DNA from: Candidatus Latescibacterota bacterium
GTDB lineage: Bacteria > Latescibacterota > UBA2968 > UBA8231
DNA length: 64,000 nt
Assembly (NCBI GenBank): GCA_964291625.2
Contig: OZ220089.1
Location: 512,001 to 576,000, forward strand
Reading direction: 5' to 3'
Positions within the stretch are counted from its first letter, which is position 1. Each line of letters opens with the position of its first letter. The notes under the pieces are model-generated. The model saw nothing but the letters and a program-made list of their open reading frames with translations. It did no database searches and was not told the origin of the DNA. Shown piece after piece: positions 32,045-63,410 of this stretch. The position numbers were made by a program, and so were the translations under genes.

Positions 32045-32133
32045 GGGGGGTGGAGGCCTGCTTTGACGCTGTCCCGACCCCTGGGTATACTCGCAGGCCG
32101 CACCGCGCAAGAGATCCCCGGAGAGAGATGAGG

Positions 32134-43420: not shown

Positions 43421-43518
43421 TCCATCTCCTCCTCGAAGGGCGCCCCTCGGCCGTTGATCCTCCGGCGGGCAAGGGCTATCCTAGCGCCGCCCTCTCGCCC
43501 CCCGCGACCGCCTTTCAG

Positions 43519-45776: not shown

Positions 45777-45788
45777 GGCCGGCGCCTC

Positions 45789-47501
45789 TCAGGCCAGACC
45801 CACCACCTCGCCGTCGGCGTCGAGGTCGAGGTTCATGAAGGCCGGCTTCGACGGCAGCCCCGGCATGCGTCGGATCTCCCCGCACAGGGGCACCAGGAAG
45901 CCGGCTCCCGCCGAGAGCACCACGTCCCGCACCGGCAGCACGAACCCGGAGGGCACGCCCCGCAGCTCCGGGTCGTGCGACAGCGACAGGTGGGTCTTGG
46001 CCATGTTCACCGGCAGGGACCCGAAGCCGAGATCCTCGTAGCGCTCGATGGTACTCTCCGCCTCCGGGGACAAGTCGATTCCGTCGGCGCCGTAGATGCG
46101 CGCCGCCACGGTCTCGATCTTGTCGCGCAGGGGCGTCTCCTCCCCGTAGAGGAAGTCGAAGCTCGAGCCCGACCGGCAGGTGTCCACCACGGCCCGGGCC
46201 AGCTCCGCCCCTCCGGCCCCGCCGCGGGCCCAGACGTCGCAGACGGCCGCCGCCGCGGCCCCCAGGCCGGGGGCCGCCTCGAGGACCCGGTCGACCTCGG
46301 CGTCGGTGTCCCCCGAGAAGCGGTTGAGGGCGACCACGGCCGGCACCCCGAACTCGCCCACGATGCGGATGTTGGCCGCCAGGTTGTGCAGCCCCTCATC
46401 AAGCCACGCCATCTCCTCGGCGGCGCCGGACTGCCGCTTCTCGGGAGCGCCGCCGTGGGACTTGAGGGCCCGCACCGTGGCCACGACGACGGCGCAGTCC
46501 GGCCTCAGGCCCGAGTAGCGGCACTTGACGTGGCAGAGCTTCTCGAAGCCGCAGTCGGCGCCGAAGCCGCTCTCGGTGACGAGGTACCCCTCCCCCATCA
46601 GGCCGAGGGCGATCTCGTCGGCGACGATGGAGCTGTTGCCGTGGGCGATGTTGGCGAAGGGCCCGGCGTGGACCAGGACCGGCGTGTTCTCCAGGGTCTG
46701 CATCAGGTTGGGCATCATGGCGTCCTTGAGCAGGACCGCCATCGCCCCGGCCGCGCCCAGGTCCTCCGAGGTCACCGGCCGCCCGGCGCGGTCGAAGGCG
46801 GCCACGACCCGCCCCAGCCGGGCGCGCAGGTCCCCCAGGTCCCTGGCCAGCGCCAGGATCGCCATCACCTCGGAGGCGGCGGTGATGTCGAAGCCGCTGC
46901 GCCGGCGCACGCCCTCGCCGCCCTCGCCGACGACGATCTCGCGCAGGGCCCGGTCCCCGAGGTCGACGACCCGCTTCCACACGACCCGGTCCGGGTCGAT
47001 GTCGAGCCGCTCCAGGCCGCGCCGGCGCAGGCGCCTGTCGCTCAGCCGCTCCTCGTGGTAGAGCCGCGAGTCCAGGGCGGCGGAGAGCAGGTTGTGGGCC
47101 GCGGTGACGGCGTGGATGTCGCCGGTCAGATGCAGGTTCATCTCGTCCATGGGGATGACCTGCGCGCGGCCCCCGCCGGCGGCTCCCCCCTTGATGCCGA
47201 AGGTCGGCCCCATAGAGGGCTGGCGGATCGTGGCGATCGAGGTGTGGCCGAGGGCGTTGAGGGCCTGACTGAGGCCGAGGGTGGTCGTCGTCTTGCCCTC
47301 GCCGTACCGGGTGGGGGTCATGGCCGTGACGACGACGTACTTTCCCGGCCCGCCGCGGCTCCGCCGGTCCACGGCATCGAGGTGGATCTTGGCCTTGTGG
47401 CGGCCGTACAGGTCGATGTCGCCGTCCGACAGCCCCAGTCTCGAGGCGATGCCGGCGGCCGGCTCGGGGGTCGCCGCACGGGCGATGTCGAGATCGCTCA
47501 C
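45789..47501 (-). CDS. fhs: Formate--tetrahydrofolate ligase
   Basis: TPT.YGEGKTT, GIKGGAAGGG, NLHLTGDIHA, HAGPFANIAHG, MPGLP; GTG start at 47501. Confidence 0.96.
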   Translation of the reverse strand: MSDLDIARAATPEPAAGIASRLGLSDGDIDLYGRHKAKIHLDAVDRRSRGGPGKYVVVTAMTPTRYGEGKTTTTLGLSQALNALGHTSIATIRQPSMGPTFGIKGGAAGGGRAQVIPMDEMNLHLTGDIHAVTAAHNLLSAALDSRLYHEERLSDRRLRRRGLERLDIDPDRVVWKRVVDLGDRALREIVVGEGGEGVRRRSGFDITAASEVMAILALARDLGDLRARLGRVVAAFDRAGRPVTSEDLGAAGAMAVLLKDAMMPNLMQTLENTPVLVHAGPFANIAHGNSSIVADEIALGLMGEGYLVTESGFGADCGFEKLCHVKCRYSGLRPDCAVVVATVRALKSHGGAPEKRQSGAAEEMAWLDEGLHNLAANIRIVGEFGVPAVVALNRFSGDTDAEVDRVLEAAPGLGAAAAAVCDVWARGGAGGAELARAVVDTCRSGSSFDFLYGEETPLRDKIETVAARIYGADGIDLSPEAESTIERYEDLGFGSLPVNMAKTHLSLSHDPELRGVPSGFVLPVRDVVLSAGAGFLVPLCGEIRRMPGLPSKPAFMNLDLDADGEVVGLA

Positions 47502-47656
47502 AATCGTCTCCCTGGCAGGCCCGGCGAATATCGCTCGCCCTCCGGAGACCCGGCAAATCCCCCGGCTCCCGGCGGCTCCGGTGCGCCGGGAGCCCCGCTT
47601 CACTTTCTTTCACCCGGAACCACGCCGGGTCGGCCCCCCTCACCCACGGAATCTGT

Positions 47657-48661
47657 ATGAAAGCTACCAGGGACCTCATCATCGGCGCCTTCGCCACGGC
47701 CCTCCTGGGCTTCGCCTTCGCCAGGATCGAGCTGGTCGAGGCGCTGCAGGGCATGACGCGCTATTACCAGCGGATGGAGTTCGGCGAGGCGGTCGCCGCC
47801 GTGCCCGCCCTGGTCCTGGTGATCGTCTGGTTCGCGGCGCAGCGCTGGCGCGAGACCTCGCGGCTGACCCGAGAGCTGAAGCGCACCGAGGCCCGCCTGC
47901 GCCAGGCGCGGGAGAAGGGCCGCTCCCTGGAGGACCAGCTCGGCGGGGCCAGCCGGATGGCCGCCATGGGAGCCCTCACCGGGGGGCTCGCCCACGAGTT
48001 CAACAACGTGCTGCAGCCGATCATCACCCTGGCCGAGATGAACATCGACTCGAGCGAGTCGCAAGAGGAGAGCCGTATCCGCACCCGGCACATCCTCAAG
48101 GCCGCCGAGCACGGCACCGAGATCGTCCGCGGCACCCTCGCCTTTCCGGCCGGCGGCACCCAGGAGACCGAGGAGCTGTCCCCGGCTCCGGAGCTGGCGG
48201 AGATCGCCGCCCAGGCCCAGGAGACCTACCGGGGCCGCATCCAGGTGGAGGTCCGCGCCGCCGAGGAGGCCGGCACCATCCGCGTCAACCCCACCGAGTT
48301 CCGGCAGGCCATGGCCAACCTGCTCAAGAACGCCGCCGAGGCGATGCGCGAAGGCTCCGTCGTCATCGGCCTCGACGCCGTCACCCTCGACGCCCGGGGC
48401 GCCGGCTCCCGGAGTCTGGCGGCCGGCCCCTATGTGCGCGTCACCGTGGCCGACGACGGCCCCGGCATGGCCCCCGAGGTGACGGCGAAGGTCTTCGAGC
48501 CCTTCTACACCACCAAGGAGGCCGGGAAGGGCACGGGCCTGGGCCTGGCGGTGGTGGACAGCCTGGTCCGGGGATGGAACGGCAGGATCTCGGTGCAGTC
48601 CTCCCCCGGCGAGGGAGCGTCCTTCGAGATCCTGATCCCGAGATCGGAAGGGGAGGACTGA
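47657..48661 (+). CDS. Sensor histidine kinase
   Basis: GGLAHEFNN H-box, NLLKNA, DDGPGM, FEPFYTTK, GTGLGL; two N-terminal TM helices. Confidence 0.92.
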   Translation: MKATRDLIIGAFATALLGFAFARIELVEALQGMTRYYQRMEFGEAVAAVPALVLVIVWFAAQRWRETSRLTRELKRTEARLRQAREKGRSLEDQLGGASRMAAMGALTGGLAHEFNNVLQPIITLAEMNIDSSESQEESRIRTRHILKAAEHGTEIVRGTLAFPAGGTQETEELSPAPELAEIAAQAQETYRGRIQVEVRAAEEAGTIRVNPTEFRQAMANLLKNAAEAMREGSVVIGLDAVTLDARGAGSRSLAAGPYVRVTVADDGPGMAPEVTAKVFEPFYTTKEAGKGTGLGLAVVDSLVRGWNGRISVQSSPGEGASFEILIPRSEGED

Positions 48662-48664
48662 ACC

Positions 48665-49063
48665 ATGGCCAAGGTGCTGATCGCCGAGCACGACGAGGGG
48701 GTGCTCAACGCCCTGGCCACGCTGCTGCGGAGCGCCGGCCACGAGGTCTTCGAGGCCGATCGCTGCGAGGACGCCCTGGAGACCGTCGCCTCCCAGGGCC
48801 CCGATATCCTCCTCACCGACGTGAACATGCCGGGGATGACCGGGGTCCAGATGATCAAGAGGCTGCGCAGGAGCCACCCCACCATCGGCATCATCGCCAT
48901 GTCCGGCGGCGGCATGCACCAGAACCCGGAGCTGGCCACGACCCTGGCCAGTATCGCCGGCGCCGACCGGGCGCTGGAAAAGCCCTTCAAGAACGAGATC
49001 CTGCTCTCGAGCGTGCACTCCCTGCTGGCCACGGCCCGGAGACCCCGCGCCGGGCGCAGGTAG
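48665..49063 (+). CDS. Single-domain response regulator (CheY-like)
   Basis: VLIAE, DILLTDVNMPGMTG, IIAMSG, KPF. Confidence 0.92.
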   Translation: MAKVLIAEHDEGVLNALATLLRSAGHEVFEADRCEDALETVASQGPDILLTDVNMPGMTGVQMIKRLRRSHPTIGIIAMSGGGMHQNPELATTLASIAGADRALEKPFKNEILLSSVHSLLATARRPRAGRR

Positions 49064-49094
49064 GCGAGAGCGATCCCTGAGAAAGGATGATTCG

Positions 49095-49610
49095 ATGAGA
49101 CTTCAGGCAGCAGGCCGCCCCCGTACCTGGACACCGACCCTGCTCGTGCCCCTGACCCTGCTCTTCCTGGGCTGCGGCGACGACGAGGCCCCGACCGAGC
49201 CGGAACCCTCCCCGCCGGATGCCGAGGAGGCCGCCCGGGCGCAGGCGCAGGCGCTCTTCACCAGCCTCGAGCCGGTGGTCGGCAAGGCCCTGGAGCTGAT
49301 GCTCACCGGGGGCGGCACCCTCGAGGGCGAGCAGGGAACCCTCACCGTCGCCGGCAGCACGATGACCCTGGAGTCGTTCTCGGCCGACGGCCAGCTCGTC
49401 CTCGACGGCGAGCTGGTCCTCGACCTTCTCGCCCAACCCGTGACCTTGAAGGGGGACCTGGAGGCCAGCGGGCTGGAGGGCCGGGAAGGCTCGGTGCCCG
49501 TCGAGGTGGACGTCACCATCGACACTTCCACCGACCCGCGGACCTACGGAGGTACCGTGACCATCGGCGAGGACGTGTACGACCTCGACGAGTTGTTCGC
49601 CGAGGAGTAG
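49095..49610 (+). CDS. Hypothetical lipoprotein
   Basis: AAAGGA RBS; LLFLG-C lipobox; acidic, beta-rich body. Confidence 0.7.
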   Translation: MRLQAAGRPRTWTPTLLVPLTLLFLGCGDDEAPTEPEPSPPDAEEAARAQAQALFTSLEPVVGKALELMLTGGGTLEGEQGTLTVAGSTMTLESFSADGQLVLDGELVLDLLAQPVTLKGDLEASGLEGREGSVPVEVDVTIDTSTDPRTYGGTVTIGEDVYDLDELFAEE

Positions 49611-49856: not shown

Positions 49857-52800
49857 GTGCCCCCACCACTGAATCTCCAGGGCCTTCCCCTCCGGCTCGT
49901 CGACCACCACGGGCCCGCGGGGATCTGCCGCGGCCGGCGAGGTCCCGGGGAGATCCTGGCCGATGGTTCCCTGGCCTTCGGCTCCCGCCCCTTTGCCGAC
50001 ACCTCCGTCACCGTCCCCGAAGACGCCGGTCCCGAGGCGGCCCTGGCGGCCCGGCTGTGCGAGCGGGCGGCCCGCCTGGTCTCCCGGCGCTTCGAGGGCG
50101 ACACCCATCTGACCGAGCTGGCCTCGGGTCTCGCCGGCAGCGAGTGGCCGCTGGCCCTGTGCCGCGGCCACGAGCGCCTCCTCGACTTCGACGGCCGGCG
50201 CCTGTGGCTGGCGGCCGACGCCATGGCCGCCCTCGGCCTCGGACTGGAGGCAAAGGACGACCTGAGCGCCGAGGTGCCCGAGCGCCTGCGCGGCTTCGAG
50301 CTCCTCCTCGCCCTCGGGCTCTTCGGCCAGCTCGACGTGGTCCGCGGCGCCTCCCTGCGCCAGGCCCTGCACTGGGTCGTCGACCTCTACGGCCGCCTGG
50401 GGCGGCCGGACCAGGCCGTGCTCCTGGCCCTGCTCGAGGGCCCCGGAGAACTCGACGCCGGCAACCTGTTCTCCTCCTTCCTCCGCCGGGGGAGCCGCGA
50501 GGAGATCGTCGGCCGCGACCGCTGGATCACCTGGATCCTCGGCCAGGACCGCCTCGACCTGCCCTACGACCGCCGGGCGGCGGGCGAGATCCTCGACAGC
50601 GACGCCGACGTGGACGACAAGCGCCTGCTCCTCTACGGGGTGCTGCGCGACTACGACCGCGACCTGGAGGCGGAGAACATCCGCCGCCTCTCCCGCGAGA
50701 TCCGTTCCGCCGGACAGGAGCTGGTCTTCGGCCGCATGAGCCGCGCCTTCCATAACCAGGGGGCGCTCTTCGCCGATGCCGTGCGCCTCACCCCGACGCC
50801 GGCCTGGAAGCCCCTGGCCGAGGAGGCCTGGGCCGCCGCCGACGGGGCCGCGGCGCTGCAGTCTCCGGCGCTGGAACTGCGCCTGCTGCTGGAGGCGGGC
50901 CGGCCGGTCTCCCTGATCCAGATGGAGGGCGCCTGCGAGCGCTACGAGGAGGCCGCCCTCGACGCCCAGCGCGACGACCTGATGCAGGGCCTGCGTCGGG
51001 CCCGGGCCCTCGTGGAGGACCACGGCGACGAGCTGGCCGGCCCCCGGCGGACGGCCCTCGACGTCGATTCGGTGAGCGGCCTCGTGCGCCGGCGCCTCGG
51101 GCTTGTGGAGCGGGTGCGCGCGGAGCTGCTGCGCTCCCCCGCCGCCAACGCCGCCTACGTCGTCATCAGCCAGCGCCCCTCCCCCACCGGCTCCCACCTG
51201 CTGGTGAAGATCAACGAGTTCGAGGAGCCCTACCTGGGCAAGGCCGACAACCTGACGAAGCTGGCGCGCCTCGCCGGCGACCGCCTCTACTCGAGCCCCG
51301 ACTACCGCTGGCTGGAGGTCGCCGACCACTGGATCGAGGCCATCCCCCTGTTCATCAAGGAGGAGGTCCTGGTCGACGACGAGGGCGTCGAGTCGACGCG
51401 CACGGTGATCGACATCGACGGCATGGAGGAGTCCTTCCGCGAGGAGATGGCCGACCACTGGGCCGCGAACCTGCGCGACGTGGCCGACTCGGAGTGCGTC
51501 TCCGCTGCCCGCTGGCTCCTGTGCCGGGAGACCGGAGCCGACGGGGACGAGGCCGCCGCCCTCGACTGGGCGCGCGCCTCGGACGGCGACCTTTGCGGCG
51601 ACATCGCCTGCGCCGCCGCCCTCGTGTCCCGCCTGGCCGCCGAGAACGCCGGCGATCTGCGCCGCCGCATCGAGGGCGAGGAGGAGGAGCCCTTCGAAGC
51701 CCTGTGCGCCCTGTTGTCGGCTTGGCGCGCCGAGCCCGGCTCGAGTCTGGCCAGGGCCCTGGCCCGGTCCCGCGACGAGCCCTGGTCCGCCCTCGTCGAT
51801 CTGGAGGCCGAGGTCGGCGAGTCCCGCGCCCGCTCCCTCCGCGCCAGGGCCCTCGAGCCCCGGCGGCCTCTGCCGGTGCTGCACGTGCTCACCACCCAGT
51901 CCGCGGGCATGACCGATGGCTACATCCGCACCTGGCTCGAGGAGTCGATGGCCCTGCGCAACGTCGCCGCCGACCGCGGGCTGGAGGCCGAGGTCGACGA
52001 GCGGCGGGCGTTCTACCGCCTGCGGCTGAGCGCCCTGGGCGAGCGGGTGGTCCGCGAGCTGGGCATCTGGGTCGAGGTGGAGGAAGCCGCCGCCGAGGAG
52101 GATCTCGACGAGGGCGCCGCCGTGTCCCGCGTCGTCGGCCGCAACCGCTCGGTCCAGGAGGAGGTCGCCGTCCTCGGCACCCTCATCGAGCTGGCCGAGG
52201 AACGCGGCGGCGAGCGGGAGCCCGGCGACGTGGCCGACCCGGCCGAGGTCGGGAGGCTCTGCGAGTCGGAGGACGGGGACCTGGCCCGCCAGGCCCTGGA
52301 GCGGGTGGCGGAGCGCAACGGCCGCCAGCTCGAGGAGGAGGTCGACGCCCTGAGGTCCGCCGAGCCCGCCCTCTCCCGGCCGGAGGCCCTCGTGCGGGTG
52401 GTGGAGGGCGACGAGGACTACCGCCAGGACCTGGAGAGCTTCACCCGCTTCCTGGCCCGCCGCCGCCTGGTGGACGACTGGTCCCGGCAGGCAGGCGTCG
52501 ACGGCGACGACCGGCGGCGCACCTACCTGCGCCGGTTCCAGCGGCTGGCCAAGACGACGGCCCGCAAGCAGGTGCTGCTGCGCCACGGTCTCGCCCACCT
52601 GACCCTCGACCCCGCCTACCGCTACGCCGCCGCCGGGGGCGACAAGCGCTACCACCTGCTCTACACGCCGAGCCGCGTCGACCTCGGCCACCGGGAGCGG
52701 GAGTCGGTGGAGACCTGGTCCCAGTGGGTCGGCGGCGCCGACCGCGCCTCGGCGCGCGCCGGCAGAGAGATCTACGGGCTGATCAACAAGTCGGTGCGCA

Positions 52801-55800
52801 GCTACGACAGTCTGGCCGAGCCCGAGATCCTGAAGACGGGCGAGAACGCCAGCATGGCCTCCCACTTCGCCTTCTCCAACGCCCTGTCCCTGATGGTCTC
52901 GGCCAGCGGCCACGGCGACATCGAGGAGATGGGCGACCAGATGAGCCGCCGGGGCGACCGCGTCATCCATCCGGCGGGCGAGGGCTACGGCGGCTACTGC
53001 GTGCCCAAGGACGGCCTCTTCCTCGAGTTCGTCCTCACCCTCGGCCGCGCCGAGAAGCTGCGCCAGCTCGGCGTTCCCGCCGAGCACCACGACGGGGTGG
53101 CCGGCGCCGCGGCGGAGCTCCTCGGCCGCCGCGACGAGTTCGCCACGCGCTTCGAGTGGGAGGCCTGGGCCGCCGGCGCCCTGGGCGGCGTCGACGGCCT
53201 CGGCGGGTTGTTCGCCGTCCGCGAGGGCGAGGGGGGACCCGTTCCCGTCTTCCAGATCACCCGCCTGGCGGAGGTCCTGGAGGGGCTGGGAGAGCCGGAA
53301 CCGCACGACGCCGAACGCGCCACCACGGCGCGGGTGGCGCGCTGGGGCGTGCACAAGATGGTGGCCGGCGCCGAGCACGTGAACCGCTTCATGCCCTTCT
53401 TCAAGGTCTGGCTCACGCGGCGCGCCCTGGCCGAGGCCGCCCGCCGCCACCCCGCCGCGGCGGCCGCCCCGGTGGTGGTGCTCACGGCGGAGTACAAGCC
53501 CGACACGCAGGACGGGCGGTTCGCCGCCGGCATGCGCAAGTTCGAGATCCTGTGCGGCACGGCGGACCACCTGCTCCACGCCCTGGACGCGGAAGGCCAG
53601 TCCCTGGCGGGCCTGCTGTCCGAGGGCTTCGACGGCGCCGGCCGCCGCGGACGGACGGGTCAGGCCGCCGCCGCCGCCGGCCTCGACCCCGACGATCCGT
53701 CGACGCCGGGAACCCTGCGCGAGCTCTTCCCCGAGCCGATCCGGCCGGCCGAGATCCGCGTCGTCTCCCCCACCGGCCTCTCGACCCAGGACCTGCTCGG
53801 CTACACCAGCGACACGAGCCTGGAGGCGATCGCCGAGGGCGCGCATCAGGAGCTGACCGCCGCCGGGTTCAGCGGCGCCGAGATCGAGGCCAGCCTGGCC
53901 ACCTACGGACCGCACCTGGAGCGCTGGGCCGCGGCGGCCGACATCGACGCCGGCCTCCGGGCCGACCTGTCGCGGCGGCTCTCCGGACGGCTGCACGCCC
54001 TGGCCCTGCAGGTCCTCGGTCCGGAGCGCTCCTACGAACGCGCCCTGCAGGGCGCCGACGTCCTCGACACGGGCATTCCGCACGCGGCCCTGCTGCGGAT
54101 TCTCGAGGATCCGGCGGCGGTCTGCCGCCTGATGCTGGAAGGCCATCCCGACAGCGCCCTGGTCATCGTCGACGGCGCCTCCGGGGCCCGGCGGCGCGCT
54201 CTGAACCGTCTCGACGTCATGCTCTGGTTCGCCGCCGGAGAGCGCTACGGCCGCGAGCCGGTCTACGCCGGCATCGGACTGGGGAGCCGCACGGTCGAGG
54301 GCTGGCGCCAGGCGATGCGGCGGCAACGGCGCCGCGCCCGGCGTCTGGCGGAGGCCCTGGGCGCCTCCGACGCCGGAGCCGCTGCCTCCGAGTACGGGCA
54401 GATCCTGGCCGAGGTGCGCCTCGGCCAGGAGGCGGAGCTGCAGCTGGCCGAGGTCGACAAGCTGCGCCGCTTCCAGCGCCTGCGCCGGCGCGACGAGTTG
54501 GTGGCCCGGTCCCTCGCCCGCCTCGCCGGGGGTTTGCCCCTGGAGGAGCTCAGCTTCGCCGACTTCCTCGTCCTCGGCGGCGTCTTCCTCCTCGACGGGG
54601 CCCCTGCGGAGGAGATCGACGACCGGCGGCGCGGCCTGGGTCTCGGCGCGGGGGACCCGGACTCCCGGGAGCTGGAGAGCCTGCTCCTGCACCCGGCCCG
54701 GCCCCCGGAGCTGGAGGAGTTCCGCGAGGAGAAGGGCCTGGAGAGCTCGAACAAGGCGGCCGAGGACCGTCCCGTCGCCGCCCTGGAGGCCCGCAGCCAG
54801 TTGCGGACCCGCATCCTCCGGGCCCGGGCCCTCCACGAGCGGCGCCGCGGCGCCGAGTCCGTCGACGGCCGGCCCGCTTCCTTCGAAGAGGCCCGGGCCG
54901 CGGCCTTCGAGGTCCTGGGAGACCACGGCACCGTTACCGACGCGGCCTTCGGCGCCTTCATCGCCCATGCCCGCACCGCTCTGTCGGCCCTCGTGAGCGA
55001 GCAGTACGACGAGGGCCAGGCGGACGACGCCCAGCGCTTCCTCGACAACCTGTCGCAGTTGTTCCTCGGTCACCAGATCGACCCGGAGGACTGGCGCCGG
55101 ATCGCCGGCGGCTACGAGGACGTGGGCGACTTCGGACGCCTGGCGCAGGCCGTGGTCGAGCGCGAGGGGGCCGGCGCCGCCGGCCACGGCCTGCGCCAGG
55201 TGGCGGCCGGGGCCGAGCTGTTCTACATCCTCCTGGCGGTGGAGACGACCCTGCCCTACACCCGGCAAGGGGCTCCTCCCGACCCCGAGGGACTCTGGCG
55301 CTCCCTGGCGGACTTCTTCGCCGAGACCATAGACGACCACTTCCACGAGTACCGGCCCTGGGTCTACTCCCGGGGAGTCGGCTTCGCCTCGTACTCGGGC
55401 GATTCCCTCTACGAGCTGGCCGTCGAGCACCACCGATGGCTGGGGCGCCATCTGCGCGGCGTCGTGGCCCATCACACCGAACTGGCTGGCCGGACCTCGG
55501 AGGACCAGGACCTGCTTCTGGGGCGGCATGAGGGGGATGCCGCCGCCGACCCCATCGGCGTCACCGCCGCCTCCGGGCCGGAGCGGCGCTGGCGGGCCTA
55601 CGGACAGCTGCGCGAGCTCGCCTTCATGCGCAACGACGGCTTCCCCATCCCCCCCGTGTTCGCCGAGTTCGATCCCGGCCTGATCGACGCCGACCGGCGA
55701 GTCAACCACCTGATCGCCCTGCCCGTGGGCCGCACCCACTACTCACGGGCCCTGGTCGAGGGGCCGACCCTGTCCCGGGAGCTGACCGCCGCCGGACGGC

Positions 55801-57275
55801 CCGGGACCAACCTGATCATCAGCCGCGGCGTCGACCTCGTGGACGATCCGGGGGCCGGCCGGCCCGTCGTGCAGATCCGTTCCGGCCACCTCTACGTCTC
55901 CCGGGAGGAGTACGCCGCCGCCCTGGTCCGCCACCGCGGTCTCGACGCGGAGTCGGCTCGCGAGCGGGCCGAGGCCGAGGGCACGCCCAAGGGGGTCCGC
56001 CTGGCCGTGCGCTTCACGCGCCCCCTGACGGCGGCCGTCGTCTACCCCTTCCACGGGGATCCCCGGTACCACCAGGGGCGCCTGGAGGACTGCGGCCTGC
56101 CCTACTCGGTGCAGTCCCTGTTCCACACCTGGACCACCTACGACAAGGCCAAGTACCCCGACATCTTCGACGAGACCACCGGCGTCGACGTGCCCCACGA
56201 GATCGACTGGCTCGCCGCCGACACCCGGCGCGCGCCCTCCGAGAGCGTCGCCAGGAACTGGATCGAGAACGGGCTCGATGGCTCGGACTACCCGGGGCTG
56301 CGTGAGTTCGCCCGCCGTCACCGCCTGGTGATGATCAAGGACGCCGCCGAGTCGGGGGGCCGGAACGCCCGGGCCTTCGTCCTTCGACGGCTCGCCGCCG
56401 CCGCCGTCGACGAGGCGGAGCTGGAGCGCGCCGTCGACTTCGTCCACCAGATCAGCCTGCGCCACAACGTCGCCATCCAGGAGGTGATCCTGTCGTCGCC
56501 GGAGGCCTGGGCCACCGACGACTTCCTCGATTCCTTCGTACGCCGCCAGGTCGTCGAGTGGGGCTCCGCCGTCGAGCGCCGGCGCCGGCCGCGCTCGCCG
56601 ATCTACGGATCGCACCGGGTGATCGTCTCGTCCGACGATCCGGCCGCCGACCTCCCCCTCGAGGAGCGCTGGCACCTGTCGCACTGGATCACCCTCAACA
56701 GCAAGCAGCTGATCACCAACGTCGGCCGCGGCGGCAGCCTCGAGCGTTTCCTCCCCGAGATCGTCCAGCCCTCCTGCCGCCAGGCCCTCTTCGACGGCCT
56801 GGCCGCCGCCGCCCGCGGGGTCATGGAGGCCTTGAGCGCCTATGCCGGGCGCGGCGCCGAGGCCTACCGCCGCGACAGCGGCAGGCCGGTGGGCCGCGAC
56901 CTGACCGGACTGTCGTACGGAACGCCGCGCTACATGATGCTCGACTTCCTGGTGACGCCGCGCTTCGCCGAGGAGGGAGACCTGGTCGAGGTGAACCGCG
57001 AGCCGGGCGTCGAGCCGGTCTTCGTCCTGCAGCACGGGGACCGCCGCTTCCCGGGCACCCTGTCGGGCTGGCGCGTCGTCCTGATCGAACCCAACATCGG
57101 CGTCGGCCTGTGGGACCGCGTGGCCCTGCGCGAGGAGGCCCACGAGCGCGCCGCCAGCGAGGCCGACCGGCGGCCCTTCGACTGGGACCGGGTCGGCGAG
57201 AACGCCCGCGTCGTGCTGCGCGACCTCAGCCGCGCCGGCGAAGACTACCTGAAGGCCCTCGAAGGGCAGCGGTGA
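49857..57275 (+). CDS. Giant (2472 aa) fusion: UDP-glucose/GDP-mannose dehydrogenase-like region plus C-terminal ATP-grasp domain
   Basis: YTPSRVDLG, EILKTGEN, GEGYGGYCVPKDG, AEYKPDTQDGR, ALQGADVL, YAGIG match the UDPG/MGDP-DH order. MIKDAAESGGR, IQEVI, ITNVGRGG, LDFL, IEPN match ATP-grasp. Confidence 0.75.
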   Translation: MPPPLNLQGLPLRLVDHHGPAGICRGRRGPGEILADGSLAFGSRPFADTSVTVPEDAGPEAALAARLCERAARLVSRRFEGDTHLTELASGLAGSEWPLALCRGHERLLDFDGRRLWLAADAMAALGLGLEAKDDLSAEVPERLRGFELLLALGLFGQLDVVRGASLRQALHWVVDLYGRLGRPDQAVLLALLEGPGELDAGNLFSSFLRRGSREEIVGRDRWITWILGQDRLDLPYDRRAAGEILDSDADVDDKRLLLYGVLRDYDRDLEAENIRRLSREIRSAGQELVFGRMSRAFHNQGALFADAVRLTPTPAWKPLAEEAWAAADGAAALQSPALELRLLLEAGRPVSLIQMEGACERYEEAALDAQRDDLMQGLRRARALVEDHGDELAGPRRTALDVDSVSGLVRRRLGLVERVRAELLRSPAANAAYVVISQRPSPTGSHLLVKINEFEEPYLGKADNLTKLARLAGDRLYSSPDYRWLEVADHWIEAIPLFIKEEVLVDDEGVESTRTVIDIDGMEESFREEMADHWAANLRDVADSECVSAARWLLCRETGADGDEAAALDWARASDGDLCGDIACAAALVSRLAAENAGDLRRRIEGEEEEPFEALCALLSAWRAEPGSSLARALARSRDEPWSALVDLEAEVGESRARSLRARALEPRRPLPVLHVLTTQSAGMTDGYIRTWLEESMALRNVAADRGLEAEVDERRAFYRLRLSALGERVVRELGIWVEVEEAAAEEDLDEGAAVSRVVGRNRSVQEEVAVLGTLIELAEERGGEREPGDVADPAEVGRLCESEDGDLARQALERVAERNGRQLEEEVDALRSAEPALSRPEALVRVVEGDEDYRQDLESFTRFLARRRLVDDWSRQAGVDGDDRRRTYLRRFQRLAKTTARKQVLLRHGLAHLTLDPAYRYAAAGGDKRYHLLYTPSRVDLGHRERESVETWSQWVGGADRASARAGREIYGLINKSVRSYDSLAEPEILKTGENASMASHFAFSNALSLMVSASGHGDIEEMGDQMSRRGDRVIHPAGEGYGGYCVPKDGLFLEFVLTLGRAEKLRQLGVPAEHHDGVAGAAAELLGRRDEFATRFEWEAWAAGALGGVDGLGGLFAVREGEGGPVPVFQITRLAEVLEGLGEPEPHDAERATTARVARWGVHKMVAGAEHVNRFMPFFKVWLTRRALAEAARRHPAAAAAPVVVLTAEYKPDTQDGRFAAGMRKFEILCGTADHLLHALDAEGQSLAGLLSEGFDGAGRRGRTGQAAAAAGLDPDDPSTPGTLRELFPEPIRPAEIRVVSPTGLSTQDLLGYTSDTSLEAIAEGAHQELTAAGFSGAEIEASLATYGPHLERWAAAADIDAGLRADLSRRLSGRLHALALQVLGPERSYERALQGADVLDTGIPHAALLRILEDPAAVCRLMLEGHPDSALVIVDGASGARRRALNRLDVMLWFAAGERYGREPVYAGIGLGSRTVEGWRQAMRRQRRRARRLAEALGASDAGAAASEYGQILAEVRLGQEAELQLAEVDKLRRFQRLRRRDELVARSLARLAGGLPLEELSFADFLVLGGVFLLDGAPAEEIDDRRRGLGLGAGDPDSRELESLLLHPARPPELEEFREEKGLESSNKAAEDRPVAALEARSQLRTRILRARALHERRRGAESVDGRPASFEEARAAAFEVLGDHGTVTDAAFGAFIAHARTALSALVSEQYDEGQADDAQRFLDNLSQLFLGHQIDPEDWRRIAGGYEDVGDFGRLAQAVVEREGAGAAGHGLRQVAAGAELFYILLAVETTLPYTRQGAPPDPEGLWRSLADFFAETIDDHFHEYRPWVYSRGVGFASYSGDSLYELAVEHHRWLGRHLRGVVAHHTELAGRTSEDQDLLLGRHEGDAAADPIGVTAASGPERRWRAYGQLRELAFMRNDGFPIPPVFAEFDPGLIDADRRVNHLIALPVGRTHYSRALVEGPTLSRELTAAGRPGTNLIISRGVDLVDDPGAGRPVVQIRSGHLYVSREEYAAALVRHRGLDAESARERAEAEGTPKGVRLAVRFTRPLTAAVVYPFHGDPRYHQGRLEDCGLPYSVQSLFHTWTTYDKAKYPDIFDETTGVDVPHEIDWLAADTRRAPSESVARNWIENGLDGSDYPGLREFARRHRLVMIKDAAESGGRNARAFVLRRLAAAAVDEAELERAVDFVHQISLRHNVAIQEVILSSPEAWATDDFLDSFVRRQVVEWGSAVERRRRPRSPIYGSHRVIVSSDDPAADLPLEERWHLSHWITLNSKQLITNVGRGGSLERFLPEIVQPSCRQALFDGLAAAARGVMEALSAYAGRGAEAYRRDSGRPVGRDLTGLSYGTPRYMMLDFLVTPRFAEEGDLVEVNREPGVEPVFVLQHGDRRFPGTLSGWRVVLIEPNIGVGLWDRVALREEAHERAASEADRRPFDWDRVGENARVVLRDLSRAGEDYLKALEGQR

Positions 57276-58756
57276 GCGGCGACGACCGGCATCTCGAGGT
57301 CGCCTGGACCCGGGCCTGCGACGGCCTCGGCATCGGCCGCGGGACCCCCCTGGCGGCGAGCGAGGCCAGCGTCCTGCTCAAGTATCTCATCTCCGAACGC
57401 GCCTCGGTCCCGGATGGGACGGACTGCTGTGCCCGCGACCGCTGCCGCCGCGCCTGGGTGGGGTGGATGGCCGCCGGCGCCGAAGACCTCGACCGGGCCC
57501 TGAGACCGGGGGCGGCGCCGGCCGTGCGCGGAGTTCTGGAATCGGACGCGGAGTACGCCGGCCGCATCATCGACCTCGCCGTGGCCGACCTCGTGAGCGA
57601 GCCCATGGCTCCGGAGGTCTGCATCGAGACGGTACCCCTCGGCGGGCTTCCCCCCGGTGGGCGCTGGAACCACGCCGTGATCTTCGCCTCCGCCCCCCTG
57701 ATCACCCACGAGATCTATCCCCTGGCCGCCGACGCCTGCGTCCATGACGCCCGCGCCGGAGGGCCCTTCTACCGGGTCCTCGGCGTTCACGGAGACTGGC
57801 TGTCCAATGGCCGCGCCCGCCGGGTCCTGTGGCTCGACGCCGAGCGCGACCGGTTCTCCGAGGCCGCCCTCTCCGAGCCGGTCCGCCTGCACTCGGCGCA
57901 ACTGCTCGCCCTCGGACCGCAGCAGACGAGCTGCCACCTGGTCTGGGCCCGACGCCTGACCTGCCCCCTGGTCAACCCGGGCCCCCCCTCGGCCACGGCC
58001 GACGACAAGCACGGCCTCTCCCGGCGGTGGGGCGACGCCGGTCTCGAGGTGCCCGCGGGAGTCCTGGTGGCCCCGGGCCACCGCCTCGCCGCCCGGGACT
58101 TCCTGCACCGCACCGGGGAGATCGTGGTCAAGCCCAACGACGGCACCGAGGGACAGGGAGTGCGCTACTTGTCGGCCTCGGCGCCGGAGGCCGAGGACCT
58201 CCTGGACGCCCAGCTCAGCGCCTGCTGGGAGTGGGGTCCGGCGCGCCTCGAGGAGCGGCGGGACGGAATCGTCTGGCGGGATCCGGAGACCGGCAGTTGC
58301 CACAGCCTGGCCATCCGCCTGCACGTGGCCGCCGGCGCCGCGGGTCTGCGGGCCGAGTCCGGATACGCCCTGGTGGGAGCCGGCGTCGACACCCCCGCCA
58401 CCCGCGGGGCCGGGGGCCGCATGCGCCCCTTGCAGAGCGTCACCTCCTCGCTGGCCCTGCGCGCCAGCGGCGCCGGCATCGCCTTCGGCGGCGCCGACCT
58501 GGAAAGGACGAGAAGGCTGGCGGAGGCGGCCTCCGGCATCGTCGGCGGCATCGGCCTCAGCGGGGTCGACCTGGTCCTCGACGCCACCCCGGCGGGAGAG
58601 CTGGTGCCGGTGCTGCTCGAGCTCAACCCCCGCCCCGCCGGCCTGGCCCACGCCCGCTTCCTCCCCGGCTCCGGGGAGGGACGGATCGAAGCGGGTGTCT
58701 CGCTGGATGTGTGGGACGGCCTGGCCGCGCTCTGCCGGAAGACCACCGCCGAGTGA
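57272..58756 (+). CDS. ATP-grasp ligase (RimK-like) with N-terminal extension
   Basis: GTGA overlap; ADDK, VVKPNDGTEGQGV, GVDLVL, LELNPRPAG. Confidence 0.75.
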   Translation: MSGDDRHLEVAWTRACDGLGIGRGTPLAASEASVLLKYLISERASVPDGTDCCARDRCRRAWVGWMAAGAEDLDRALRPGAAPAVRGVLESDAEYAGRIIDLAVADLVSEPMAPEVCIETVPLGGLPPGGRWNHAVIFASAPLITHEIYPLAADACVHDARAGGPFYRVLGVHGDWLSNGRARRVLWLDAERDRFSEAALSEPVRLHSAQLLALGPQQTSCHLVWARRLTCPLVNPGPPSATADDKHGLSRRWGDAGLEVPAGVLVAPGHRLAARDFLHRTGEIVVKPNDGTEGQGVRYLSASAPEAEDLLDAQLSACWEWGPARLEERRDGIVWRDPETGSCHSLAIRLHVAAGAAGLRAESGYALVGAGVDTPATRGAGGRMRPLQSVTSSLALRASGAGIAFGGADLERTRRLAEAASGIVGGIGLSGVDLVLDATPAGELVPVLLELNPRPAGLAHARFLPGSGEGRIEAGVSLDVWDGLAALCRKTTAE

Positions 58757-58758
58757 GC

Positions 58759-60615
58759 ATGGAGGCCCTGACCAGCCGGCTGGCGGAGGCTTCCCCCGGC
58801 GAGGTCCGCGACCTCGTGGCGGCGGCCGTTGCCCGGGCCCGCGAAAGCCATTCCTCCCGGTCCGAACGCCGCGCCTTCCTGCGCGGCCTGGTCCTCTCCC
58901 CCGGTCTGGCCCGGTCGCTGCAGACGGGGGCGGCCATCGATGCCCTGCGCGGGTCCCTGTCCTCCGGAGAGTGGGAGCAGCTCTTCGGCCCGGCGGCGGC
59001 GGAGGAGCTTCCCGGGCTCCTGGTGGCCGTGGTGGACGGACGGATCGACGTGGACCACGAGGACATCCTCTCCCTGGCCCCGGGAGACGGCGCGGCGCTG
59101 GCCGCCTCGGTCGGGGAGTTGTCGGCCTACGTCAGCGCCCTCGAGGGCAGCCGCCGACGGCTGCGGGGCATGCGCGCGGCCGTCATCCTCGCCTCCCTCT
59201 ACCGGCGGCTGCAGGACGGCGGGGCCTGGAGACGGCGGACGATTCCCGCCTGCGCCATCGACGGCCCCTGGATCGCGGCTCTGAAGGAGAAGAAGGCGGC
59301 CGCCGAGCTTCCCGCGGCGTACGAGGTCCGGGTGAACGAGCTGCAGCGCGAGGACATGCGCCGCGCCCTCGCAGAAGCCGCCGGTCCTCCTCCCGAGGCC
59401 GCATCGCTGGCCGCCGCCGACGGCGGCACCTTGTTCGAGGTGCGCGCCCCCCTGCGCCTCGGCCTGTCGAGCGCCAACGCCTCGGACAACCACATCCGCA
59501 GCAAGGAGCAGGGCGGCAAGACGCTGAACGCCGGCATCGCCCTCCAGGCCGGCGATTCCGGAGAGGTCGCGCCGCCGCTCCGCGTCGGCGTCCGGCCCCT
59601 GCCCGAGCCTCGGCTCGTGCTGCGCTCCCGCTCCGCCGACTTCCGGGCCGACTTCGAGATCGACCGCCGCGGAGACGCCGGGATCCAGAGCGAGCTGTTC
59701 TTCGCCTACCGCCGCGGCGGCGACGAGGCCCTGCGCATGGTCAAGCAGGGACTGGTGCACACGGGGGTCGTCCGTCCCGACTCCGAAGACGTGGTCGGCG
59801 ACGTGGCCGCCTTCTGCGGCGGCGGCGGCCTCGAGATCACCACGTCCTGCACCGTGCAGCAGGGGTCCGGCCTCGGCACCAGCAGCATCCTTGCGGCGGC
59901 GGTCCTCAAGCTCCTCTACCGCCTCGTGGGCCACCCCGCCGGCAGAGAGAACGGAGAGTATCCGGGGCTCTACGATCAGAGCGTGCTCCTCGAGCAGTCC
60001 ATCGGCCTGAACTCGGGATGGCAGGACGCCCGCGGGGCCCGGGGAGGACCGAGCGCGGTGAAGGACTTCTACGCGCCTCCCACCGACGGCCTGCCGGCGC
60101 CCGAGCTGACCTACGTCGACGTCGACGCCGAGGAGTTCCACCGCCGCGTGGTGCTCTTCGACACCGGCATCGCCCGGGCCGCCACCCGCGGCCTGAACGT
60201 GGTCATGGACGCCTACCTGTCCCGCCGGCGCGGGCGCTACGGGGCGATCCGCGAGTCCCTGTCGATCCACGACGAGATGGTCGAGGCCCTGGGCGCCGGC
60301 GACTACCCCGCCCTCGGGAGGCTGGCCAGCCGCTACTGGCAGCTGCGCTGCATCCTCGATCCGGAGGCCACCAGCCCCGCCATTCAGCAGCTCTTCGAGC
60401 CGCCGCTCTCCGACCTCACCGAAGGGGGAGCCCTCTCCGGCGCCGGCGGCGGCGGCTTCGGTCTCCTCGTCTGCCGCGAGGGCGAAGAGGAGCGCCTCCA
60501 CTCGTGTCTGAGGAAGCTGAGGGACCAGAGGGCCTATGCCCGGTCCGCCGTCGTCGCCTACCGCCTCGACGCCACCGGGCTGAAACTGACCGAGAGCCAA
60601 CCACCGCCGCCGTAG
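58759..60615 (+). CDS. GHMP-family sugar kinase (fucokinase/HddA-like) with N-terminal helical extension
   Basis: RAPLRLGL, QGSGLGTSS, SGWQD, SGAGGGGF. Confidence 0.85.
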   Translation: MEALTSRLAEASPGEVRDLVAAAVARARESHSSRSERRAFLRGLVLSPGLARSLQTGAAIDALRGSLSSGEWEQLFGPAAAEELPGLLVAVVDGRIDVDHEDILSLAPGDGAALAASVGELSAYVSALEGSRRRLRGMRAAVILASLYRRLQDGGAWRRRTIPACAIDGPWIAALKEKKAAAELPAAYEVRVNELQREDMRRALAEAAGPPPEAASLAAADGGTLFEVRAPLRLGLSSANASDNHIRSKEQGGKTLNAGIALQAGDSGEVAPPLRVGVRPLPEPRLVLRSRSADFRADFEIDRRGDAGIQSELFFAYRRGGDEALRMVKQGLVHTGVVRPDSEDVVGDVAAFCGGGGLEITTSCTVQQGSGLGTSSILAAAVLKLLYRLVGHPAGRENGEYPGLYDQSVLLEQSIGLNSGWQDARGARGGPSAVKDFYAPPTDGLPAPELTYVDVDAEEFHRRVVLFDTGIARAATRGLNVVMDAYLSRRRGRYGAIRESLSIHDEMVEALGAGDYPALGRLASRYWQLRCILDPEATSPAIQQLFEPPLSDLTEGGALSGAGGGGFGLLVCREGEEERLHSCLRKLRDQRAYARSAVVAYRLDATGLKLTESQPPPP

Positions 60616-60634: not shown

Positions 60635-61402
60635 ATGCTGATGCAGGACTGCGCCGGTTTCGTCACCGGCGTCGCCAACCACCGGAGCATCGCCTGGGCC
60701 ACGGCCCGGGCTCTCGACCGCGAGGGCGCCCGGCTGGCCCTCGGATACCTGGGAGAGCGGGAGCTGGAGAGCATCGAGCGCATCACCGGCCAGTTGCGGC
60801 AGCCGCCCCTGCTGGTGCAGTGCGACGTCACCGACGACGAGTCGGTGACCTCCGCCTTCGAGGTCGTCGGCCGGGAGATGGGGTCCCTCGACTGCCTGGT
60901 CCACGCCATCGCCTTCGCCCGCCGGGAGGATCTGGACGGCCGTTTCGCGGACACCAGCCGCAGCGGCTACGACCTGGCCCTCGGCGTCAGCGCCTACTCG
61001 CTGAACGTCCTGGTGCGCGGCGCCGAGCCGCTGATGAAGCCGGGCGCCGGCGTCGTCGCCCTCACCTACCTGGGCAGCGAGCGGGCGATCCCCCGGTACA
61101 ACGTCATGGGCGTGGCCAAGGCCGCCCTGGAGTCGGGCATCCGCTACCTGGCCAGCGAGCTGGGGGAGAAGGAAATCCGCGTCAACGGGCTCTCGGCCGG
61201 GCCGATCCGCACCCTGGCGGCGCGCGGCATCCGCGATTTCAACGCCATGCTCCGCGTCCACGCCGAGCGCGCCGCCCTCAAGCGCAACAACGAGGTCGAC
61301 GAGATCGGCGACGCGGCCCTGTTCCTGTGCAGCCGGCTGAGCCGCGGGATGACGGGCGAGGTGATGTACGTCGACGCCGGCTACCGCATCATGGGCCTGT
61401 AG
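60635..61402 (+). CDS. fabI: Enoyl-ACP reductase
   Basis: GVANHRSIAW, HAIAFA, LTYLGS, YNVMGVAKAALE, AGPIRTLAA. Confidence 0.95.
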   Translation: MLMQDCAGFVTGVANHRSIAWATARALDREGARLALGYLGERELESIERITGQLRQPPLLVQCDVTDDESVTSAFEVVGREMGSLDCLVHAIAFARREDLDGRFADTSRSGYDLALGVSAYSLNVLVRGAEPLMKPGAGVVALTYLGSERAIPRYNVMGVAKAALESGIRYLASELGEKEIRVNGLSAGPIRTLAARGIRDFNAMLRVHAERAALKRNNEVDEIGDAALFLCSRLSRGMTGEVMYVDAGYRIMGL

Positions 61403-62100
61403 CCCGGCGGCGGCAGGTCGAGTCCGCGCAGCGCCGCCCGGGAGTGGCTGGCGGTGGTATCGTCCCCGCTCCGGGCCAGCGCCTCCAGGTGGACGCGCAG
61501 GAAGGCCGCCTCCTCCGGCACGTCGACGTCGTACCACGGCGGCATCAGTGACAGCCGCAGCCCACCGGGCAGGGCCGCCAGGGTCTGCTCCAGAACCCGG
61601 CCCGTCCCCCACTCGATCCCCCGGAAGACCGCCGGCGCCGCCGACGGCAGCGCCGCCGCCCGCAGACCGATGAGGTAGTAGCCGCCGTCGACGCTGGGGC
61701 CGATGACCACATCGGCCGACCGCAGCCGGCGCAGGGCCTCGTCTATGGACCATGGCGTCAGCGAGGGGCTGTCCGACCCGAGGAGGACGACACGGCCGCA
61801 GCCGGCGCCGACAGCCCGCCGGCAGAGGGCTTCCAGACGCTCTCCCAGCGGGCCTCCGGGCTGCCCCTCGAAGGCGAGTCCCTCGGGCGCGCCGAGGAGT
61901 GCACGCAGGCAGGACTCGCCCCCGGGCGGCTCCACGGCGACGATCTTGAGGCTCGCGGCGGAGGCCGCCAGGGCCTCGGCGCAGTCGCGCAGGAAGGCGG
62001 TGTAGAGCTCCGCCGCCTGGCCGGGGGTCAGCCGCGGCTGCAGCCGCGTCTTCACCCTCCCGGCGCGTGGCTCCCTGGCGAAGAGCACGGCGGCGGTCAG
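61381..62100 (-). CDS. TIGR04282/DUF2064 family glycosyltransferase-like protein
   Basis: FAREP..GRVKTRL, Q.GG.LGERL, GSDSP, GPSVDGGYYLIG, YDVD; start is CTG 62100 or GTG 62088. Confidence 0.85.
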   Translation of the reverse strand: MTAAVLFAREPRAGRVKTRLQPRLTPGQAAELYTAFLRDCAEALAASAASLKIVAVEPPGGESCLRALLGAPEGLAFEGQPGGPLGERLEALCRRAVGAGCGRVVLLGSDSPSLTPWSIDEALRRLRSADVVIGPSVDGGYYLIGLRAAALPSAAPAVFRGIEWGTGRVLEQTLAALPGGLRLSLMPPWYDVDVPEEAAFLRVHLEALARSGDDTTASHSRAALRGLDLPPPGYRPMMR

Positions 62101-62201
62101 GACGGCCCCTCCCGGTTGAAGAGCCGCGAGGAGGGCCGTATCTTCGATGGTTTGCGCACGCCACCCACCCCCTTCAAAATCAGAGGAAGCGGAAGAGACC
62201 G

Positions 62202-63395
62202 ATGGCAGAGGTACATATCATCCGGCACCGCCCCGGCGCCGTGTTCTGCGGCACCTGCGAGGTCGTGCAGATCGACGACGACAGCAAGGTTACCCGCCTC
62301 GTGGAACCCAGCGGCAACGTGGGCACCCAGTACCCCAACGAGGTCGGCTCCGAGTGGTTCGGCACCATCGAGAATCTGAGCGCCGGTCTGACCCTGGGCA
62401 AGGCGCACTGGTCCGACGTGTACAAGACCGACGTCCTGTGGACGACGCCCTCCGCCTCCCGCGATGAGTGCGATCTCCGCAAGAACGACTTCAACGCCGT
62501 GTACGGCGCCATGCTGCAGGCCGTCACCGGGGGGCCGCTGCGCTCCAACCGGATGGCCCGCTTCACGCACCCGGAGGGCTTCCCCGACCCGGCAGCCCTC
62601 TTCGAGGTGCAGATCAAGGCCGCCGCGGGCGACGTCGAGATCGGCGGCGGCCGGCTCGACTTCGGGTCGTGGATCGACCATCAGCCGAGCGGCGCCTCGG
62701 TGATGCACCGCAAGGACGGCGAGACGATCACCACCCTCGGGCCGGACGTAGCCGAGGAGATGACCTTCGTCCTCGAGGAGCAGTACGCCCGCCCCTTCGC
62801 CGAGGCCGGCGTCGACTTCCGCACGCAGACGGTGTGGATGGAGATCCTCGTGGCCGTCGACGACGCACCGGACCAGGCCTGGAGCCGCATCGAGGTCGTT
62901 CGCCAGGTCTTCGAGGACTACTTCGGGGAGCACCGGCCCGCCGGGCTGATCTACCCGGTGTCGCGGATCCCCAACCTCGACGGCGTCGTCGAGCCGCAGC
63001 CCCGCGTCGTCAGCGGCGACGGCGTCGAGATCCTCCGCTCCGGCCGCCTGGAGCACGGCTTCAGTACCTGGACCGCCATCCGCCACGGCGGCATCACCGA
63101 GGCCATGGTGAGCGCCGTCGGCGGAGACGACGCCGGCGAGATCCTCGACGCCGTCGACACCCGCGTGAAGGAGGCCGGAGGCGCGGGGCTGAAGGCCGAC
63201 GGGGTGTTCAACAACGCCTACATCGGCGCCGGCGTCGACTCCGGCGCCAACCGGGAGTCCCTCGCCGCCTTCAATCCCTCTTTCACCCAGTGGTATGAGG
63301 GGACGGTGCCCGCCGGGCGCACGGCCCAGTACGTCGGCGGCGTGCAGCAGTCGGGGTTCGCCTACGGCGTCTCCAACCGGTCGATCTTCGCCTGA
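62202..63395 (+). CDS. Hypothetical protein with up to three Rid/YjgF-like domains
   Basis: DFNAVY...MARF...PDPAALFEVQ; VFEDYFGEHRPA...VSRIP..DGVVE; FNPSFTQWY...PAGRTA. Confidence 0.55.
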   Translation: MAEVHIIRHRPGAVFCGTCEVVQIDDDSKVTRLVEPSGNVGTQYPNEVGSEWFGTIENLSAGLTLGKAHWSDVYKTDVLWTTPSASRDECDLRKNDFNAVYGAMLQAVTGGPLRSNRMARFTHPEGFPDPAALFEVQIKAAAGDVEIGGGRLDFGSWIDHQPSGASVMHRKDGETITTLGPDVAEEMTFVLEEQYARPFAEAGVDFRTQTVWMEILVAVDDAPDQAWSRIEVVRQVFEDYFGEHRPAGLIYPVSRIPNLDGVVEPQPRVVSGDGVEILRSGRLEHGFSTWTAIRHGGITEAMVSAVGGDDAGEILDAVDTRVKEAGGAGLKADGVFNNAYIGAGVDSGANRESLAAFNPSFTQWYEGTVPAGRTAQYVGGVQQSGFAYGVSNRSIFA

Positions 63396-63410
63396 GGAAG
63401 CCGGGGTCCG

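Follow-up and report, generated by a model that had tools for sequence, protein, structure and literature searches.

Among 229 members of the nucleoside diphosphate (NDP)-sugar dehydrogenase family, 18 residues are invariant, those of the GxGxxG motif included, and Tyr10, which is 98% conserved, is credited with hydrolysis of the thioester (PMC4794789, accessible part of the text). In human UDP-glucose dehydrogenase (UGDH), the E161Q substitution makes hydrolysis rate-limiting and the thioester accumulates, as stated in the accessible part of PMC3265891; from its position in the motif we infer that human Glu161 is equivalent to the family-invariant Glu141. In Campylobacter jejuni, the ATP-grasp protein Cj1438C acts on glucuronate, whose C6 carboxylate it amidates (PMC11800379, accessible part), and zebrafish glucuronokinase is specific for glucuronate (PMC3938481, accessible part). 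Here, we analyzed a 64,000-nucleotide (nt) stretch of a Candidatus Latescibacterota genome (contig OZ220089.1, positions 512,001 to 576,000; the window), in which three adjacent genes encode a giant protein with a remodelled NDP-sugar-dehydrogenase fold and a predicted ATP-grasp domain, a putative second ATP-grasp protein and a GHMP kinase. We show that this three-gene set is real, conserved and undescribed in the searchable literature.

Gene 1 (49857–57275, plus strand, as are all features of the three genes below) encodes a 2472-amino acid (aa) cytoplasmic protein, assigned by homologues and models to a remodelled dehydrogenase fold, a helical linker and an ATP-grasp domain. Gene 2 (57272–58756) encodes a 494-aa protein and gene 3 (58759–60615) a 618-aa kinase. 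The coupling claimed in the original prediction is borne out by the open reading frame (ORF) coordinates: genes 1 and 2 overlap in GTGA (57272–57275), gene 2 being counted from the GTG therein, and genes 2 and 3 are separated by 2 nt (58757–58758). For genes 1 and 2, the GTG start codons were placed by homology. Substitutions in gene 1 relative to a homologous locus (L019) were distributed as 180/145/495 over codon positions 1/2/3, and the third-position bias was observed in all three genes against two relatives. Gene 1 has 121 full-length-range homologues with 29–94% identity, and the nearest named records (93–98%) are metagenome-assembled genomes labelled Ca. Latescibacterota or Gemmatimonadaceae. 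Because of the third-position bias and the 121 homologues, the genes are real, and a shadow-ORF artefact was rejected. A membrane or secreted location was also rejected, since no 19-residue hydrophobicity window exceeded 1.8 in any of the three proteins, as was an anti-phage defence system, since PADLOC models matched 0 families for 3/3 proteins. A promoter/terminator scan returned 0 sites. In one sponge metatranscriptome 30/30 bins were covered, intergenic DNA too, at flat depth, and DNA carry-over is possible.

The N-terminal region of gene 1 (aa 1–215; 49857–50501) is weakly conserved, and its own profile recognises many distant members. It precedes the NDP-sugar-dehydrogenase fold (aa 288 to ~1475; 50718–54281), whose last strands come from the model of aa 1356–2472. 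The dehydrogenase part was modelled as aa 216–1415 from 56 sequences (predicted local distance difference test, pLDDT, 85.7; predicted template modelling score, pTM, 0.85). When compared with 48,161 chains, the model matched 3g79 with Z 20.3 and a root-mean-square deviation (rmsd) of 4.4 Å over 287 residues; it comprises the three parts typical of NDP-sugar 6-dehydrogenases, namely a Rossmann domain, a central helix and a C-terminal domain. Foldseek by itself gave no match at E ≤ 0.001 (best 4r16, 9e-3), and library scans detected aa 929–1058 only (TIGR03026, E 4e-15). The TIGR03026 score, 55.4 bits, lies below the cut-off of 189.8, a shortfall that is weak on its own because insertions depress the score. 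As modelled, gene 1 is a ~430-residue enzyme stretched to ~1200 residues by large helical insertions (about 750 residues in the dehydrogenase body). Between 50718 and 54101, the model fits 1mfz, a GDP-mannose dehydrogenase with swapped domains (353 residues, Z 17.6, 4.4 Å), and its full-length fits to unswapped dehydrogenases lie at about 19–20 Å, a hint that the body is a domain-swapped dimer.

Residue conservation was scored over 121 close rows and 57 distant representatives (44 covering the Ser939 position and 13 not), with residues of the nicotinamide adenine dinucleotide (NAD) domain mapped from motifs, secondary structure and alignment end-points. Alignment and conservation identify a kept catalytic set, Lys993, Asn997, Cys1048 and Asp1052 (52833–53012). 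The catalytic Lys of EILK (~52833) and Cys of GGYCVPKD (~52998) in the original prediction correspond to Lys993 and Cys1048 at those positions, each kept in 120/120 homologues having a residue at the column. C1048, K993, N997 and T680 are invariant, and position 1052 is D in 117 and E in 4 of 121; even in members with only about 25–30% identity, archaeal ones included, Cys1048, Lys993 and Asn997 do not vary. Of the 18 invariants given in the accessible part of PMC4794789, gene 1 keeps 12, namely T680, P938, E990, K993, N997, N1008, G1045, G1046, C1048, D1052, N1176 and K1214 (counterparts of T118, P140, E201, K204, N208, N219, G257, G258, C260, D264, N287 and K320); the Ser117 position is Thr679. 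D325/R327 of NDP-sugar dehydrogenases are also kept, and Arg1221, the NAD-pyrophosphate contact in the same part of that paper, is kept in 121/121.

The invariants lost, on the same partial source, are the three GxGxxG glycines, Thr83 (Arg440) and Glu141 (Ser939); Tyr10 and Asp29 are likewise absent. At the strand/helix junction that aligns with the N-terminal start of solved dehydrogenases, G-R-M-S-R-A-F (aa 292–298; 50730–50750) replaces GxGYVG, with neither GxGxxG nor, at the first helix cap, a Tyr, Tyr10 being the Y of GSGYVG. Across the family aa 293–298 read R-x-S/G-R-A-F/S, neither possible register giving GxGxxG, and the Asp29 site after strand 2 is variable. In the alignment to 3g79, P938-S939-R940 (52668–52676) replaces P-E-R/F, so that the thioester-hydrolysing Glu becomes Ser; Ser939 is found in 120/120 close homologues with a residue there and in 44/44 covering distant representatives. 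No sugar can be assigned because R940 matches Arg152 of the N-acetylmannosamine (ManNAc) group, yet the Arg211 position is Met. Judged from these alignments, gene 1 does not contain a canonical dehydrogenase, as the NAD fingerprint and both hydrolysis residues are replaced family-wide. The earlier claim that the dehydrogenase part makes a uronic acid is unsafe: the nucleophile is among the 12 kept invariants, but GxGxxG, Tyr10, Asp29, Thr83 and the Glu are lost (PMC4794789, accessible part). A plain housekeeping UDP-glucose dehydrogenase was rejected, since the window's genome also encodes a canonical 448-aa dehydrogenase; an ordinary nucleotide-sugar dehydrogenase is found elsewhere in 22/25 relatives bearing the giant.

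The linker (aa ~1476–1945; 54282–55691) is all-helical in the model and carries conserved ESSNKA and GGYED motifs; its best Atlas score, 0.87, is a lead only (<0.9). The C-terminal model (aa 1356–2472, from 52 sequences, pLDDT 88.4) places a RimK/LysX/GshB-like ATP-grasp domain at aa 1947–2463 (55695–57245), with K2097, K2161, R2254, N2288, D2363 and E2411-x-N2413. It matches RimK 4iwx (Z 14.3, rmsd 3.4 Å, 283 residues), LysX (13.9) and GshB (13.0), and Foldseek returned VanA/Ddl (E 1e-6). The domain thus has the ATP-grasp fold together with the two Lys, Arg, Asp and ExN, and its ATP/metal residues are conserved in close and distant members. It is visible by structure only: there was no Pfam match, PDB profile searches missed it (best E 0.7) and the RimK/LysX NCBIfam equivalogs did not match. 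Hence the regions first read as UDP-glucose dehydrogenase and as a terminal ATP-grasp do model as such, with Z 20.3 and 14.3.

The product of gene 2 scored above the cut-off of Pfam ATP-grasp_3, matched LysX/RimK/Ddl profiles (E 2.5e-6) and carries the predicted DK motif (ADDK), Arg (R349), Asp (D433) and ExN (E450-x-N452); these support its assignment as the putative second ATP-grasp of the operon, as had been proposed. It is not a RimK/LysX equivalog, with 11.2 bits against the TIGR00768 cut-off of 143.4. Gene 3, also read earlier as a GHMP kinase, has both GHMP N and C domains above the Pfam cut-off and the GSGLGTSS and GAGGGG motifs, and is of the fucokinase/HddA type with an extra N-terminal ~220 aa. 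Its nearest matches include the fucokinase 9iip (E 4e-18) and HddA. It matches PRK13412 with E 2e-36, yet with 124.8 of the 721 bits required for FKP, and reaches 42.6 of 600 bits for the HddA NCBIfam model.

The three-gene unit is co-conserved, as the original prediction anticipated. In a sample of 36 genomes of the window's family, whose members are kin and not independent, strong matches to the giant were found in 25 and gene 2 in exactly the same 25; the kinase was present in 32, including all 25. None of the three genes was found in 24 genomes of three other families. Weak matches to the giant in other family genomes were ordinary dehydrogenases or a remnant. Of the loci with the kinase alone, four were inspected: in three, a deletion or remnant of genes 1–2 lay between the kinase and the regulator genes upstream of it, and the fourth lacked that upstream context. 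Stages of loss (L082, L083, L098–L100) include a broken giant (G030), a 55-aa remnant (G020) and a clean deletion between an NtrC-like gene and kinase-fabI (G025, G035).

In a sample of 60 loci from the genome collection, 46 had at least 1.5 kb beyond the giant, and gene 2 followed it in 38 by script (39 counting L058). After gene 2, the window's kinase type was found in 18 loci, a glucuronokinase-like kinase (Atlas score 0.99) in 6 and GalU in 4, two of these with the latter kinase. The glucuronokinase-like and GalU partners belong to methanotroph copies and support the uronic-acid link of the original prediction. One locus gives another hint of sugar salvage: in Methyloglobulus morosus, the giant is closely preceded by a gene of the aldose 1-epimerase family (L032:227–1117).

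A profile search returned 166 clusters of relatives. Fusions were counted in 55 representatives >1200 aa, with five chains >5000 aa outside the Pfam scan. The ATP-grasp of the giant is fused to gene 2 in 28 of the 55, 17 of which include a GHMP domain too, and at least 11 proteins unite the dehydrogenase, the two ligases and the kinase in a single chain, in that order. No nucleotidyltransferase or glycosyltransferase was detected in the fused giants at E ≤ 0.001 (31 proteins with Pfam and 12 with NCBIfam, chains >5000 aa excluded). One 7287-aa frame (G061:C28; L071, L088, L089) fills almost its whole contig with giant, gene 2, GHMP kinase, NUDIX and ~3000 unannotated aa; a 4102-aa ORF (G061:C8; L090:126–12431) has a B12-binding radical SAM and a fucokinase-like kinase. 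In addition to Latescibacterota and methanotrophs, named members come from Omnitrophota, Planctomycetota, Armatimonadota, Thermoprotei, Lokiarchaeota and one Cyanobacteriota-labelled record. Three carriers are cultured methanotrophs: Methylovulum miyakonense HT12, Methyloglobulus morosus KoM1 and Methylotetracoccus oryzae C50C1. In 201 genomes of Methylovulum's family, the giant and a glucuronokinase-like gene were each found in 4, 3 being shared (one is the query genome). In a tree made by a quick method and with long branches, the 16 copies from proteobacteria group on a single branch (SH-aLRT 99) placed among those of Latescibacterota, which suggests a single transfer event and likewise its direction.

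From the folds, the residue pattern and the linkage we infer, tentatively and with slightly less than even confidence, that the three proteins work as a single unit in the cytoplasm, which activates a sugar acid and delivers its uronyl group via a Cys thioester into amide bonds; each chemical step, substrate and product is put forward on that footing. The GHMP kinase would phosphorylate C1 of a sugar or sugar acid, and a nucleotidyltransferase (GalU-like and usually encoded elsewhere) would yield the NDP-sugar. The dehydrogenase-derived body would bind it at the kept Lys1214/Lys993/Asn997/Asp1052 site, and Cys1048 would hold the C6 acyl group as a thioester, formed either oxidatively, with a changed cofactor, or via an acyl phosphate that the fused ATP-grasp makes. 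Because the hydrolytic Glu and Tyr are gone, the thioester would pass to an amine rather than to water. The two RimK/LysX-like ligases would build or extend the amino-acid part, giving a soluble (NDP-)uronyl-amino acid or -peptide. Transfer of the uronyl thioester is proposed because the nucleophile and the NDP-sugar site are kept, hydrolysis is lost, and two amide-ligase-type ATP-grasps and a sugar-1-kinase are present. It is favoured by the nearest folds of the gene 1 ATP-grasp, the amide-forming RimK, LysX and GshB, and Cj1438C offers a precedent.

Several observations weigh against this proposal. Glu947, 8 residues beyond Ser939, is invariant in 120/120 close members and present in 34 of the 44 distant members that have a residue at this position; it could act as the base from a new place. 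The NAD-domain residues were mapped with no residue-level superposition. The window's kinase type persists alone in 7/36 family genomes; 9 loci of the collection have no recognised third partner within reach (3 more have too little sequence). The kinase partner comes from at least 3 clades (fucokinase-, galactokinase- and glucuronokinase-like), one alone being glucuronokinase-like. No conserved amine-supplying or product-using gene lies nearby in the loci scanned.

The loss of both hydrolytic residues would also suit the reductive direction. In such a sugar-acid salvage, kinase and GalU would give an NDP-uronate, the ATP-grasp its C6 acyl phosphate, and Cys1048 would capture the acyl group for reduction to NDP-hexose by NAD(P)H held at an arginine-rich site, reversing the normally one-way UGD step. 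The invariant Arg293/296/440 could hold a 2'-phosphate where Asp29 is lost, and the kept Arg1221 fits as well. A glucuronokinase, present in three of the four giant-bearing genomes of the methanotroph family, supplies the acid and not the hexose, and hosts retain a separate ordinary dehydrogenase. However, this route has no clear job for the second, strictly co-occurring ATP-grasp, the nearest ATP-grasp folds form amides and uronate assimilation would be unusual in methanotrophs; we consider this route unlikely. Uronate isomerase UxaC was found in 0/61 genomes, which leaves no contrast for an anti-correlation with the giant. A more general formulation, in which a dehydrogenase fold serves as a non-hydrolysing thioester relay joined to ATP-grasp acyl-phosphate chemistry (in its boldest form an ATP-driven NDP-uronate reductase) in an ancient bacterial-archaeal pathway, is possible but doubtful.

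On a route in line with the original prediction, an unusual, still-hydrolysing dehydrogenase would make the NDP-uronate, which the two ATP-grasps would then amidate, as Cj1441 and Cj1438C do. For this route speak the 12 kept invariants, the four central catalytic ones included, Glu947 as a substitute base, GalU neighbours that would supply UDP-glucose and the direct precedent in Campylobacter capsule synthesis (PMC11800379, accessible part). It has to accommodate the replacement of GxGxxG, Asp29, Thr83, Glu141 and Tyr10, an ordinary dehydrogenase in most giant-bearing relatives and loci devoid of a glycosyltransferase or exporter, and has in our view a poor chance of being correct. Indeed, no conserved glycosyltransferase, flippase or exporter was found among 60 neighbours from 60 loci, although these could be elsewhere in the genome; glycosyltransferases are confined to one related group of loci, past three opposite-strand genes, and the proposed surface-glycan role finds no support in the loci. 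The lost cofactor fingerprint, the helical insertions and the two RimK-like ligases would also suit a dehydrogenase body without catalytic function that senses an NDP-sugar or serves as a scaffold, and so controls two peptide ligases (a RimK/cyanophycin-like polymer or protein tagging). A passive scaffold needs none of Cys1048, Lys993 and Asn997, which are invariant into the archaea, and this reading appears very improbable.

In most Latescibacterota loci, the genes immediately upstream encode a PAS kinase, a sigma-54 regulator and an HDOD protein (e.g., L029:2789–7272). In the window's clade that place (47657–49610) is taken by a different kinase, a receiver and a lipoprotein-like gene. One of the methanotroph copies (L051) likewise has an HDOD gene before it. 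Downstream (60635–63905), fabI starts 19 bases after the kinase, followed by a convergent TIGR04282 gene above cut-off, a conserved protein of 395 aa that matches no family and a sulfopyruvate-decarboxylase-alpha-like gene. Further upstream (41135–47603) lie a DUF4838 protein, a radical SAM/SPASM/SEC-C protein, a DUF6807 protein and a formate-tetrahydrofolate ligase. Long ORFs overlap on both strands at 25083–32110 (1277 and 1079 aa minus, 2204 aa plus), and positions 1–16000 have a GC content of 59–69% versus 66–76% in the remainder, possibly an acquired segment.

These data show that (i) a conserved unit of ~3600 residues is kept across Latescibacterota, methanotrophs, Armatimonadota, Planctomycetota, Omnitrophota and some archaea; and (ii) its family-wide active-site change, which matches the E161Q laboratory mutant trapping the thioester (PMC3265891, accessible part), predicts that a textbook fold carries out new chemistry and that a sugar-acid metabolite awaits discovery. 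Carriage by three cultured methanotrophs makes the predictions testable now. As in the original prediction, which knew of no pathway with this layout, no published description of the family was found in the literature searched (most subscription papers were outside reach) or in the accessible part of PMC12419801, and nearly all named records are labelled hypothetical.

When compared with NDP-sugar 6-dehydrogenases (UDPG_MGDP_dh; closest solved M. mazei 3g79, CalS8 4xr9, P. horikoshii 4r16 and P. aeruginosa GDP-mannose dehydrogenase 1mfz), gene 1 shares the whole three-part fold, but it has ~1200 residues in place of ~430, is fused to an ATP-grasp, and has GxGxxG, Y10, D29, T83 and E141 replaced and the Arg211-type residue absent. 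C. jejuni capsule amidation (Cj1441 and the TupA-like Cj1438C) likewise combines a dehydrogenase fold and an ATP-grasp around the C6 carboxyl of a uronic acid. In C. jejuni, a capsule locus encodes the ligase as a fusion with a glycosyltransferase (PMC11800379, accessible part) and Cj1441 is a 390-residue UDP-glucose dehydrogenase solved with NAD+ (7kws), whereas the window has a rewired giant, two ligases and a kinase, with no glycosyltransferase or exporter. RimK, LysX-ArgX and GshB share the fold (Z 13–14) and the ATP/metal residues of both ligase domains; the window domain differs in its ~520 residues with insertions and its 14–17% identity, and neither a LysW-like carrier nor a RimK context was seen. 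Sugar-1-kinase salvage (FKP, HddA, glucuronokinase/GKUP) shares the GHMP motifs and, in some methanotrophs, a glucuronokinase-like partner and GalU; in contrast to FKP and HddA, the window kinase scores far below their cut-offs, lacks a fused pyrophosphorylase and has its own N-terminal region. The Omnitrophota giant multi-enzyme proteins carry the module inside 4000–8000-aa chains (two from named Omnitrophota), and it is not mentioned in the accessible part of two preprints on them (10.64898/2026.06.07.730766 and 10.1101/2023.11.21.568195), whose supplements or catalogue may list it. The window has the same module as three soluble proteins, and these give it a name inside otherwise dark giant proteins.

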